Source: Candidatus Latescibacterota bacterium (GTDB lineage Bacteria; Latescibacterota; UBA2968; GCA-2709665). Taken from it: a stretch of DNA of 64,000 nucleotides. The position numbers and the translations under genes were made by a program. Every line of letters starts with the position of its first letter. The first letter of the stretch is position 1. Positions 8,110-30,374 of this stretch are shown here, one piece after another. The stretch is taken from assembly GCA_965219455.1 (NCBI GenBank), contig OZ244744.1, forward strand, positions 1,792,001 through 1,856,000, given 5' to 3'. Below the pieces are notes generated by a model. That model was not told the origin of the DNA, searched no databases, and saw nothing but the letters and a program-made list of their open reading frames with translations.

Positions 8110-8524
8110 GGTCTGCGCTCCGGAAGGGCAAGGGGTTGCGATGCGGAAGGACTGGGGATATATTGGCGTCGTTCGACCGTTCGCGACGACGTATGATTGC
8201 GATTCCCGGTCACCGCCAATTTAGCAAAATGAGCGATCGGTTTCCACCAAAATGATGCCCGCGCCTGACCGGCGGTCAACGATGCCAATGCGTTCGGCAA
8301 CGAAGATGGGAGCGCCCGGAGAGGAGGCCTGCGATAGATCGCAAAATCACCATCACTCGTGAGCTCTGCGAAGCGTCGCCGGGCCCCGCGAAGTGCGTAA
8401 GCCGCGATCAGCGCTATGTCCGTTCGGGAGGATCGAGCTGTATCTCACCAGGCTCGGCGCCGATCCGCGGGATTTCTGGCGCTCGAATGCCTTCCGCTAC
8501 CTCATCGACACCACGTGAGTCCTG

Positions 8525-9170
8525 GGACCTCTCCCCCCGGCCCGCTCAGGAATAGCTATCTGCAATCAGCCTTCAGCAGTCAGCTAAAAACGTAAGGCAA
8601 AAGGCGGAAAACAACGTCAACATCCACATCTCCCCAGATTCCCTGCCTACGGCGTGTTCCTTTTGAAGCGACCAAAAGGAACCAAAAGTCGCCGCTGGGC
8701 GCGGGGCCTGCCATATGCATAGCGCGAATTTCGTTACTGGATGCACGTCGGACATTGCCCTACCAGCCTCAGCTGAACACCGATCGTCGCTGCTTAACGG
8801 AACCACGCGCTCTGCTCTGGAAGTGTTCTTGAAAGGCATCGCGTTCAGATTCTTTCTGGCTACCCGAGTGGGAGAAGCAGACAGCCAAAAGCGGTACGAC
8901 CGCAAACACGCTCGGCGGACCTTGCAGGTTTACCTCACGCCCGCCCGGTGGCACGGGGGGTTTTTCCGTGTCATTCCGTAAATCTCCGTAAGTCGGGAGT
9001 ACCGGGAGGGCTCGTAGGCCACCCAATTCCAATTTCCGCCCCTGAGGTAATTCACGGAAAAACCGGCCCCGCGCCGAGCGGCGCCCTTCTTTTTCGCCCT
9101 TTTTCTTGGGCGAAGCAAGAAAAAGGGCAAGGGAATAGGGGACGTTAAGGGTGGGGGAGATTCTATGCCG
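8525..9170 (+). repeat. Composite non-coding repeat element (~650 bp)
   Basis: 8525-8919 recurs inverted at 21824-22221; deletion derivative at 6293. Confidence 0.75.
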
Positions 9171-20586: not shown

Positions 20587-21777
20587 TTAAGCAAAGTACC
20601 TCGGCCCCATCGCCGCGGGAGGGGTGCGTTCGATGGGATCGCCCGACCCGCGTTCGATGGCGAAGCCGATGGGCGCGGGGCCGGGGTCGTCGAAGCGCAC
20701 ATTGTAGGTCGTGCAGCCCCAGCGTGACCCTGCCGCGACGGCATCGAAGGCCTCAACGGTCCGCCGCTGGGGATCGTACGCGAGCCAGCCGTACAGGCTC
20801 AGCTTCAGGCCCCGGGGTTTGTCCACGGTAAGGCCGCTGAAGGGATTGCTCTCGAGCGTGGGTTCCGCTTCCAGGTGGATGCGTCCCTCCAGGCGGAGAC
20901 GGATTCGGTCGGATTCGGTGGATTCGACGGTCAGGCTTATCTCACCTTCTTTCAGGTTTTCTTCCCGCCAACCGGGCGATTGACCTCGCACCGTGTCGAT
21001 GAAGTGACGCAGGGCGAGCCGCCTCGTAAACCAGCCCGGTGCGCGATACGTCTGGCCGGGCCGGGCATTCTCGGGCGCCAGAGACCGGACCTCCTCTTCG
21101 GTAAACCATGCAAAGTCGATGTTGTGCCGGGTGTCCCCGTCTTCAGAATTCCTCGGCAGGTCGCGGACCGTGACCTTGAGCGCCAGGCCGTCTTCCGGAT
21201 AGGACCATCCGAGTCTGGGATCGACGGGGTAGGCTTCGGGGATGTCACCCGCTGCGCCGTTGTCCGGGCGTTCTCGCCACCCTGCCAGGCTCCGCTCGAG
21301 CATTTCCAAAAAAGGGCCGGCATCCCTCGTGTTGATGGACCCCAGCAACTCGCCGTCCGCCGTGCAGGCGTACAGGCCCTGCCGGGTTGCCGTGGGTTGG
21401 GTGCGGCCTCCGTAATGGCCCTGTTCGGCCACGAGGCGGAAGAACTCGCCCTTTGCGTCATTCTGCGTCTGGGTATAACTGCAATTATCCGCAACGGATA
21501 TGAAAGATCCGTTGAGGATCCGGATCACTTCAGGATGGGAGAAAACGGACTCACGGCCCGCTATACCGTTGTTTCAGACGCAGCCGAGCGGGTTGCCGTT
21601 CATCGACCAGATAAACAGCGGTCTGCGCACGGCAGCCGCGCGCCGTCGGGCTTTCCAGAGGTCGGTTTCCCAGGCGATGTCTGTCCACCGCACTTCCTCG
21701 GGTTTTGACTTGATCCGCGACAGTAGAGATTCAAACGTTCCGGGACGAGGCGTCCATTCCGATTGTTGAGTTGTCAT
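20587..21777 (-). CDS. Putative selenoprotein, thioredoxin-like/SelN-like, 396 aa with in-frame UGA (Sec68)
   Basis: ORFs 21574-21819 and 20587-21528 are in frame and separated only by TGA in GNPLGCV-U-NNG; SECIS-like hairpin follows; GGAG RBS before ATG 21777. Confidence 0.8.
21544..21562 (-). promoter_or_regulatory. Putative bacterial SECIS hairpin
   Basis: AGCGGGC-CGUGA-GUCCGUU; loop starts 19 nt after UGA, with G at loop position 2. Confidence 0.6.
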
Positions 21778-21823
21778 ATCCATCTCCTGTTCAGTGTCCA
21801 ACTCCCTGAAACCTGCCATGATT

Positions 21824-22221
21824 CTTCCGCCGAGTGTGTCTGCGGTAGTACCGCTCTTGGCTGTCTGCTGCTCCCACTCGGGTAGCCAGGCAGAATCTGA
21901 ACGCGATGCCTATCAAGAGCACTTCCAGAGCAGAGCGCGTGGTTCCGTTAAGCAACGACGATCGGTGGTCAACTGAGGCTGGTAGGGCAATGTCCGACGT
22001 GCATGCAGTAAGGCAATTCGCGCTATGCATATGGCAGGCCCCGCGCCCAGCGGCGACTTTTGGTTCCTTTTGGTCGCTTCAAAAGGAACACGCCGTAGGC
22101 AGGGAATTTGGGGAAAGGTGGATCGTGAATTTGGGTTTCGCCTTTTGCCTTTCGTTTTTAGCTGACCGCTGAAGGCTGATTGCTGATAGCTCTGTCTGAG
22201 GGGGCCGGGGGGAGAGGTCCC
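21824..22221 (-). repeat. Inverted copy of the 8525-8919 repeat element
   Basis: High nucleotide similarity over ~395 bp. Confidence 0.8.
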
Positions 22222-27850: not shown

Positions 27851-28978
27851 TCAGTCCTTTACGATCCGATTGTTTGTATACTGATTTGAGTAGTGCCGCA
27901 AGTTGCCCGTGGCGTAGGCCTGCCTTATGGCAGTAGCCGGGAGCCAGTGGATAAACCAGTTATTGTAGATGTCACAGATATCCTGGGGAATGCCCCGGAT
28001 GGTCACGGCTTCCACGTCGACGGCCATGAACGTATTGTGATGAATGAGAATGAGGCCGCCGGCGATGTCTGTTCCGTCGTCCCGGTCCCTTCCGCCGTGC
28101 ATGTCGAAACTGTGGCTGTTGGCGTTTTCCAGAACCAGGTTGTAGCGGGCTTCGTAGCTCGTGCCTGGCCTGCCCGTGCCGGCAATATGGTGCCGGCCCC
28201 AGTCGAACAGGTTGGCCTCGATGAGGGCTTCGGATCGGTCCATAACCACGCCGTAACCCAGGCCGTGGCGCTGGTTGTGGTGGAAATAGTTGTGATGGAT
28301 GTTGTTGTCCGTTGAATTGGCCCGGAGGAAAATCGCCCCGTGGCTCCAGCCCCAGAGTTCACAGTTGTCCACTTCGAGCCTGGGATGTACGGTCTGGATG
28401 CCCCGGGAGTTGGGAATGCTGTAATACTCCCCGACTGCAAGGAGCTCCTTCATCTGCTCGGTGCGTCTCATGGTGTCCGGGCCCTCCAGCCTGAGGCCGG
28501 TCACGCGTACGTCGGCCCCGGTAACGAGGAAGAGCGGAAGGGTTTCCAGTTGTTTGGAATAGACGAGACCCCCCTCCGAATCGGGCTTGCCCCGCCCGCC
28601 GGCCAGCGTGACGCCTGCGCGGATCTCGATGTTCTGGTCGCCTGTAAGGTCCACCCTGGCGGTGTCCGCCAGATAGACGACCTCACCTGCGCCCGCCCGT
28701 CCAAGTGCGTCCAGCAGTTCCATCCGGTTCGTGACGAGATAGTCGTATTGGTCGACCCGTTGATTGTATCCGTCTCCCCCGCCGATGGGATTGCCCGTGG
28801 GGTTCGAGTCGGCGCCGAACTTTTCATCCGAAAGCAGGGGTCGATTCTCCTGGCCGTTGCCGTTTGACGAATCGCCGTCCGGCGTCTCCGGCGCGGCGGA
28901 TTTGTCTTTCCCGCCGCATGCCGCCAGAAGAATCATGACGGCGAGACAGATGAGCTTTTTGTATAAGGTCGTTGTCAT
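27851..28978 (-). CDS. Lipoprotein with right-handed beta-helix (pectin-lyase-like), copy 2
   Basis: Lipobox LAAC; HHNYFHHN and IEANLF beta-helix repeats. Confidence 0.75.
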   Translation of the reverse strand: MTTTLYKKLICLAVMILLAACGGKDKSAAPETPDGDSSNGNGQENRPLLSDEKFGADSNPTGNPIGGGDGYNQRVDQYDYLVTNRMELLDALGRAGAGEVVYLADTARVDLTGDQNIEIRAGVTLAGGRGKPDSEGGLVYSKQLETLPLFLVTGADVRVTGLRLEGPDTMRRTEQMKELLAVGEYYSIPNSRGIQTVHPRLEVDNCELWGWSHGAIFLRANSTDNNIHHNYFHHNQRHGLGYGVVMDRSEALIEANLFDWGRHHIAGTGRPGTSYEARYNLVLENANSHSFDMHGGRDRDDGTDIAGGLILIHHNTFMAVDVEAVTIRGIPQDICDIYNNWFIHWLPATAIRQAYATGNLRHYSNQYTNNRIVKD

Positions 28979-29065
28979 TTCCTAAACACCGTCCAATCAC
29001 TCGCGGCAAGAATCGCGCCGCGGACCATCGCGTATTTCTTCAAGAAATCGTCTATCACTTTTTTC

Positions 29066-30193
29066 TCAGTCCTTGACGAGCCGGTTGTGCGTGTACTGGT
29101 TTGAATAGAGCCGTAGATTACCCGTGGCGTATGCCTGTCTGACAGCGGTAGCCGGGAGCCAATGGATAAACCAGTTGTTGTAAATCTCACAGGCTTCCTG
29201 GGGAATCCCCCGGATGACGACGGCCTCCACGTCGATAGCCAGAAACGTGTTGTGATGAATGAGAATAACGTCGCCGGCGATATCCGTTCCGTCATCCCGG
29301 TCCCGGCCGCCGTGCATGTCAAAACTGTGGCTGTTGGCGTTTTCGAGAACCAGGTTGTAGCGGGCTTCGTAGCTCGTGCCTGGCCTTCCCGTACCGGCGA
29401 TATGGTGCCGGCACCAGTCGAACAGGTTGGCTTCAATCAACGCTTCCGACCGGTCCAAATTCACGCCGTAGCCCATATGGTGGCGCTGGTTGTGGTGAAA
29501 ATAGTTATGGTGGACGTGGTTGTCCGTTGAATTCGCCCGGAGGAAAATGGCGGCGTGGGTCCAACCCCAGAATTCGCAGTTGTCCACTTCGAGCCTGGGG
29601 TGTGCGGTCTGAATGGCCCGTGAGTTGGGGATACTGAATTGCCGGCCTTCCGACAGGAGTTGCTTCATCTGCTCGGTGCGTCTCATCGTGTCCGGGCCCT
29701 CCAGCCTGAGCCCGGTAACGCGAACGTCGGGACCCGTGACGAGAAAGAGTGGAATCGTCTCCAGTTGTTTGGAATAGACCAGGCCCCCCTCGGAATCGGG
29801 CTTGCCCCGCCCGCTGGCCAGCGTGACGCCGGCGCGGATCTCTATATTCCGGTCGCCTGTAAGGTCCACCCTGGCAGTGTCCGCCAGATAGACCACCTGG
29901 CCCCCGGTCGCCTGCTTGAGCGCGTTCAGGAGTTCCGTGCGGTTCGTAACGAAATAGTCGTACTCCTCGACCCGTTGATTGTATCCGTCTCCACCTCCGA
30001 TGGGATTGCCCGTAGGATTCGAGTCGGCGCCGAACTTGTCGTCCGAAAGCAGGGGTCTGTTCTGCTGGATGTTGCTACCCGTCGTCTCGGCAGGCGGCGG
30101 CTCTGGGGCGGCGGGTTGTTCCTTCCCTCCGCATGCGGCCACAAGAATCAGCACGGCGAGACAGGTGAGCGTTCTGTATAAGGTCGTCGTCAT
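29066..30193 (-). CDS. Lipoprotein with right-handed beta-helix, copy 1
   Basis: Lipobox VAAC; same length (375 aa) as and highly similar to 27851-28978; GAGG RBS. Confidence 0.75.
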   Translation of the reverse strand: MTTTLYRTLTCLAVLILVAACGGKEQPAAPEPPPAETTGSNIQQNRPLLSDDKFGADSNPTGNPIGGGDGYNQRVEEYDYFVTNRTELLNALKQATGGQVVYLADTARVDLTGDRNIEIRAGVTLASGRGKPDSEGGLVYSKQLETIPLFLVTGPDVRVTGLRLEGPDTMRRTEQMKQLLSEGRQFSIPNSRAIQTAHPRLEVDNCEFWGWTHAAIFLRANSTDNHVHHNYFHHNQRHHMGYGVNLDRSEALIEANLFDWCRHHIAGTGRPGTSYEARYNLVLENANSHSFDMHGGRDRDDGTDIAGDVILIHHNTFLAIDVEAVVIRGIPQEACEIYNNWFIHWLPATAVRQAYATGNLRLYSNQYTHNRLVKD

Positions 30194-30349
30194 AAACACC
30201 TCACGCATCCACCCCCGGGCAACAGACCGCCCTTCCACCCCGTGGCCACCGGGTGAGTAGGGAGAGGGGAGAGGTAAGAAGGCCGCCCGCGTCCACCGGA
30301 TATCCATATGGCCTGGCGATGTCGACCATCGATATGCTCGCCACGACGC

Positions 30350-30374
30350 GTGCAACCACAAGGGTTGCCCCTAC
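30350..30374 (-). repeat. GTAG-type REP palindrome
   Basis: One mismatch to the 2650 copy. Confidence 0.75.

Follow-up and report, generated by a model that had tools for sequence, protein, structure and literature searches.

Two open reading frames on the minus strand of the window, i.e. the whole stretch of 64,000 nucleotides analysed here from a Candidatus Latescibacterota bacterium, lie in the same frame and are separated by a single TGA. Does this TGA end a gene or encode selenocysteine (Sec), what would the resulting protein do, and is it related to eukaryotic selenoprotein N (SELENON)? Reading from 21777 to 20587 gave 67 codons, the TGA (21576-21574), 328 codons and a TAA. The frame arrangement of the original prediction was borne out, and read-through yields 396 amino acids including the motif it had quoted. 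The features of the locus are:

20587..21777, minus strand: whole gene, 396 aa plus TAA, with one in-frame TGA (from the translation and the alignment of related loci)
21784..21788, minus strand: ribosome-binding-site-like AGGAG, 6 nt upstream of the ATG at 21777 (from the sequence and the ATG position in loci L009-L016)
21574..21576, minus strand: UGA, almost certainly Sec68, in G-C66-V-U68-N-N-G71 directly ahead of helix 69-77 (from alignment and model)
21544..21562, minus strand: putative bacterial SECIS with a 7-bp stem and the loop CGUGA (21555-21551), the loop overlapping the codon of the invariant Arg75 (from fold and covariation)
21262..21705, minus strand: thioredoxin-fold domain, residues 25-172, of the Thioredoxin_7/DsbD-C/DsbH/AGR type, with conserved AEQGHYxGR and TRQG
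20590..21210, minus strand: beta-rich C-terminal domain, residues 190-396, without a family name

The ATG stands 67 codons ahead of the TGA in all eight of the closest loci (L009-L016). A public contig, which may come from the source sample, spans 21078-21949 with 0 differences from the window; a sequencing slip at the TGA is thus unlikely. Upstream of the gene, at 21991-22220, a palindromic intergenic repeat was observed, represented by 81 blastn pieces in the genome and with an inverted copy at about 8524-8754 and very high contig depth; it looks like a REP/MITE-type element. At 27851-30361 on the minus strand, the window contains two tandem paralogous lipoprotein-like frames with a right-handed beta-helix region.

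Related loci were taken from species-representative genomes, and the best 80 of 126 were used; by record title, the 126 belong to Latescibacterota, Poribacteria, Chloroflexota, Planctomycetota and a few others. Homologues with TGA or Cys at the site and conserved flanks had been proposed as a check, and both were found. All 80 loci aligned through the site without a change of frame, each with TGA there. Neither TAA nor TAG, named beforehand as evidence against the proposal, occurred at the site in these loci, and their terminal stops were mixed (36 TGA, 27 TAG, 12 TAA, five contig ends). Cys was present at -2 from Sec in 79 of 80, in the motif G-C-V/T-U-N, and Arg at +7 in every locus. Seven of 265 database proteins examined spanned the site, three with Cys (P0029, P0073, P0167) and the other four with Ala, Asp, Ser or Arg. 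When the 168 genomes of the own phylum were searched in full with the domain profile A4, 42 of them yielded 47 matches in total, and every match contained one TGA. In the phylum of a Planctomycetales MAG (G171), 93 of 301 sampled genomes matched; 143 of 150 among the matches listed contained one TGA, the position of which was verified in the fetched loci only.

Among the stops of long frames in the genome, TGA is the most frequent (1980 of 3869), and 118 of 120 database matches begin past the site, as would be expected if the TGA were a genuine stop between two distinct, translationally coupled genes, or a recent nonsense mutation. Such a stop would, however, break a single thioredoxin domain; TAA and TAG never replace it in the 80 loci, fused Cys forms exist, the database start positions are scattered over residues 72-159, and the hairpin behind the TGA covaries as a SECIS. 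We consider this reading extremely improbable. The late starts of the database matches rather indicate that gene callers cut the family, which agrees with the predicted split of one gene by annotation, and sequence comparison leaves very little doubt that the TGA encodes selenocysteine.

The genes selA, selB, selC and selD, for which a search had been suggested, are all present in the source genome; selA, selB and the tRNA-Sec gene are adjacent at C1:4374106-4377628. The selD gene (G000 C1:3407174-3408097) carries its own TGA and encodes a selenoprotein itself, with C-G-U-A-A-K and a weak hairpin at +18. Carrier genomes of the own phylum contained selA in 41 of 42 cases versus 131 of 168 genomes overall, those of the G171 phylum in 90 of 93 versus 221 of 301; these counts are tallies, not statistical tests, and, as kin are not independent, they are overstated, as are the covariation figures given below. 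The lone selA-less carrier of the own phylum is an 80 % complete assembly in 820 contigs. The three of the G171 phylum are a non-TGA form (L149), a match not spanning the site and a distant TGA form (L153).

A 7-bp hairpin with the loop CGUGA beginning 19 nt past the UGA had been predicted to fit the general bacterial SECIS model. Two of its seven pairs are G-U; the stem energy is -7.6 and that of a 44-nt fold -10.3 kcal/mol. [quoted passage not shown] Folded as a single sequence, it did not surpass its shuffled counterparts (z -0.04 to -1.39, four folds); the support for a SECIS is therefore comparative. Among 81 distinct sequences, the 7-pair stem was paired in 83.8 % of cells, and slid-register controls reached 30-46 %. 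Two-sided changes were present at all seven pairs, in 70 cells, and none of 500 shuffles was as high, a test that somewhat favours the stem since the structure was taken from the window sequence. The outermost pair is weak (unpaired in 47 of 81). The codon of Arg75 in the loop was CGT in 62 and CGC in none of 80 loci; two other conserved Arg residues had CGC in 31 of 80 and 42 of 78, and all other Arg used CGT in 267 of 2436 cases. A simple scan with an energy threshold of -5, looser than the published rule, passed 68 of 80 Sec sites versus 485 of 2190 control codons (22 %); 58 of the 68 had the loop at +19 or +20, compared with 2.8 % of the 2190 controls. In a second Latescibacterota subfamily, the same loop is enclosed by additional stem variants. 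The predicted hairpin is upheld by this covariation.

The predicted structure (pLDDT 95) comprises a Thioredoxin_7/DsbH-type domain and a beta-rich C-domain, and together with its fold neighbours supports the earlier placement of the Sec site in a thioredoxin-fold redox domain. In alignment and model, Sec68 takes the position of the attacking Cys of the thioredoxin CxxC, Gly71 stands in place of the second Cys and Gly134 in that of the usual cis-Pro; the register is based on the model and on weak HMM alignments, in which U fell on the first Cys in both 3f9u and 3ira at E 0.1. The closest known domains are Thioredoxin_7, Thioredox_DsbH, DsbD-C, AGR-ERp19 and UAS (PF13899, PF03190; 3f9u, 2lst, 1sen, 3ph9, 2ju5, 3ira, 2dlx). 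The window protein differs from these in having Sec for Cys, no second Cys at +3, a further Cys at -2, Gly where the cis-Pro would be, the AEQGHY insertion and the fused beta-rich domain. Glu118, His121, His258, Asp221 and Asp261 are conserved, as are the C-domain motifs RDLPR, NxDxxW, HxxDxVRG, GxRxG and NxRxxD. The window protein (P0001) had no Pfam match, and no NCBIfam match at E <= 10; 108 relatives gave weak matches only, and among the matches listed no member reached the Pfam cut-off. The modelled C-domain had no clear structural match, and residues 190-396 indeed form the large uncharacterised domain anticipated.

The best explanation, probable as a whole, is one gene for a two-domain redox selenoenzyme with Sec68 inserted by SelB. 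Following the standard bacterial pathway, SelB and Sec-tRNA would bind the hairpin 19 nt past the UGA. The protein is very likely a redox enzyme with Sec as nucleophile. Its selenolate would reduce a substrate held at the C-domain interface, and a hydroperoxide, a sulfoxide or a specific disulfide is tentatively proposed; that neither a second Cys nor the cis-Pro is present speaks against a general protein disulfide reductase. Oxidised Sec may be resolved by Cys66 as a selenenylsulfide, which a cellular thiol system would reduce again. Cys66 is slightly favoured for this role, which is not universal, because several paralogues lack Cys at -2 (e.g. G-L-T-U, G-F-A-U). The window copy is presumably cytoplasmic, and many of the copies in planctomycetes appear to be exported. 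Conservation of neighbour genes does not reach past close kin, thus the genomic context points to no substrate.

Loss of the cis-Pro can allow metal binding at thioredoxin sites. Together with the conserved His121, His258, Asp221 and Asp261, this would suit Sec and Cys66 binding a metal or metalloid for sensing, detoxification or chaperoning in place of redox cycling, a reading that is unlikely as no metal-resistance gene is found among the neighbours common to many loci and Sec is kept in paralogues without the Cys. Deiodinases have a C-x-U spacing and a conserved Glu/His pair, which the window protein resembles, and the absent cis-Pro argues against an ordinary disulfide reductase. Sec could then attack an aromatic halogen, aided by the -2 Cys and Glu118/His121, in a reductive dehalogenase. 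This is slightly less probable still: the deiodinase family (PF00837) was not among the listed Pfam matches of the 108 members at E <= 0.1, and the fold neighbours are of the DsbH/AGR type. The top-50 lists of the structure searches were taken up by other thioredoxin folds.

The proposed redox selenoenzyme belongs to a family of 1799 clusters at 50 % identity (E <= 0.001), probably a selenoprotein family not described before, in which a known principle takes on a new architecture. Table 1 of PMC13188914 (119 families) has no matching entry as far as accessible, the words Planctomycet-, Latescibact-, Poribacter- and Chloroflex- are absent from the text of that paper, and the family matched no NCBIfam model of these 119 families among those that could be tested. 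The accessible parts of the deep-Sep study (PMC12013277) and of an algal survey (PMC7539508) contain no description of it. Table S9 of PMC4807772 names split planctomycete candidates, without sequences, as 'hypothetical' or 'thiol-disulfide isomerase-like thioredoxin'; these could be relatives. Among bacterial selenoproteins, the VPGUxxT thioredoxin-like proteins (NF041382, NF041383) and Trx7/PDZ (NF041199) are of the same thioredoxin subtype but differ from the family in motif and C-domain. Of the 108 members, 14 matched their models weakly, with E 6.8e-5 at best, and paralogues scored 12-20 bits against curated cut-offs of 275-350; a split Trx7/PDZ selenoprotein used as positive control (L133, G170) scored 423 bits on NF041199. 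A similar Sec spacing (CxU/PxGxxU) is listed in the accessible part of Table 1 of PMC13188914 for Brachyspira Sec.1, TsoC (NF045708), a UshA-like protein, rhodanese form 3 and ferredoxin-thioredoxin reductase. The NCBIfam models of these entries, including TsoC, matched none of the 108 members at E <= 0.1, and Brachyspira Sec.1, as far as described in PMC5330540, is unlike the window protein in being small and carrying Sec in an extension before the domain.

The family extends into a wider superfamily. Barring contamination of the MAG, profile A4 had 29 matches at E <= 1 in G171 alone, of which 24 contained one TGA, always at the Sec position and with a hairpin predicted behind it. The TGA-bearing loci, some in tandem pairs, are:

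L122, L126, L128, L132, L136, L138, L140, L142-L148 and L154-L161

Their Sec motifs vary (e.g. GCGU-NN, ERCU-GY, GQCU-HG, GVCU-AA, GLTU-NN), and 15 of the 24 matched the C-domain profile. At L138/L141, L152 and L156, a TGA copy adjoins a non-TGA copy with Asp at or near the Sec site; the latter are possibly inactive or regulatory partners. In P0173, P0137, P0179 and P0174, the family is fused to further domains, identified by eye, among them a Ser/Thr kinase-kelch protein and a PQQ-like propeller. The most distant G171 genes led to a sister group, A5 (L162-L191), which one query detected in 56 of 251 genomes and which is homologous to A4 (HH probability 99.3 %, E 1.7e-20). It has the pattern G-x-L-D-x-x-x-U-x-x-G-x-x-x-R with invariant U and Arg at +7; the C-terminal parts differ. 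Cys directly precedes Sec in 10 of 27 A5 rows, and 58 of 120 database forms have Ser-Cys by a simple pattern. Against family models, A5 gave weak matches only and no family name.

The resemblance to SELENON claimed in the original prediction held in part. The comparison drew on published descriptions of SELENON. SELENON has a membrane anchor, an EF-hand and SCUG with U462, and its disease changes G463, R466 and R469 lie in a hairpin, the SRE, adjoining the UGA (PMC12839072, PMC8967691, PMC8584023, PMC3541580). Like SELENON (human U462/R469; PMC3541580, PMC12839072), the window protein carries Sec in a domain of thioredoxin type and an Arg at +7, and like the SRE its gene's hairpin lies directly 3' of the UGA. 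Fold class and Arg +7 thus stood; SCUG, Arg +4, EF-hand and membrane anchor did not. The window protein has G-C-V-U-N-N-G instead of S-C-U-G, no Arg at +4 and another domain order; Pfam gave no EF-hand match, no N-terminal hydrophobic stretch is present and the model leaves no room for an anchor before residue 25. SCUG was absent from the 80 loci, and C-U-G was seen only in paralogues. On these grounds, the window protein is probably not a member of SELENON.

A true bacterial orthologue, i.e. a protein-thiol reductase acting on a partner transporter, would account for Sec ahead of a helix in a thioredoxin-type domain, for the Arg at +7 in 80 of 80 loci, equivalent to human R469, and for the C-U-G paralogues (L142, L147, L154, L156). 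It is nonetheless doubtful, given the C-x-U-N motif, the missing Arg at +4 (human R466), EF-hand and anchor, and the large extra domain C-terminal to the thioredoxin domain; moreover, this C-domain is missing from the A5 group, in which 10 of 27 rows show Cys at -1. Kinship of the redox selenoenzyme family with SELENON via a shared superfamily is plausible, and A5 is the better candidate for the link, presumably resembling SELENON more than the window family does. The window gene may be one branch of a very large, uncatalogued Sec-thioredoxin superfamily of Planctomycetota, Latescibacterota, Poribacteria and Chloroflexota, defined by U, Arg at +7 and a SECIS loop lying on the codon of this Arg, and expanded in one genome to no fewer than 24 genes with TGA; that SELENON descends from it, most likely via an A5-type branch, with the SRE as a possible SECIS relic, is conceivable at somewhat less than even chances.

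With few exceptions the family is encoded with Sec, gene callers split it in nearly every case, and the selenoproteome of some planctomycetes would rise sharply with its inclusion. Its natural SECIS alignment is clean and shows covariation, its C-terminal domain has no name and its active site departs from the standard. Should the SELENON ancestry be true, the small soluble bacterial members and their natural Cys forms would be tractable models of SELENON chemistry, including the myopathy mutations G463, R466 and R469, and the chemistry of a human disease protein would become testable in bacteria.
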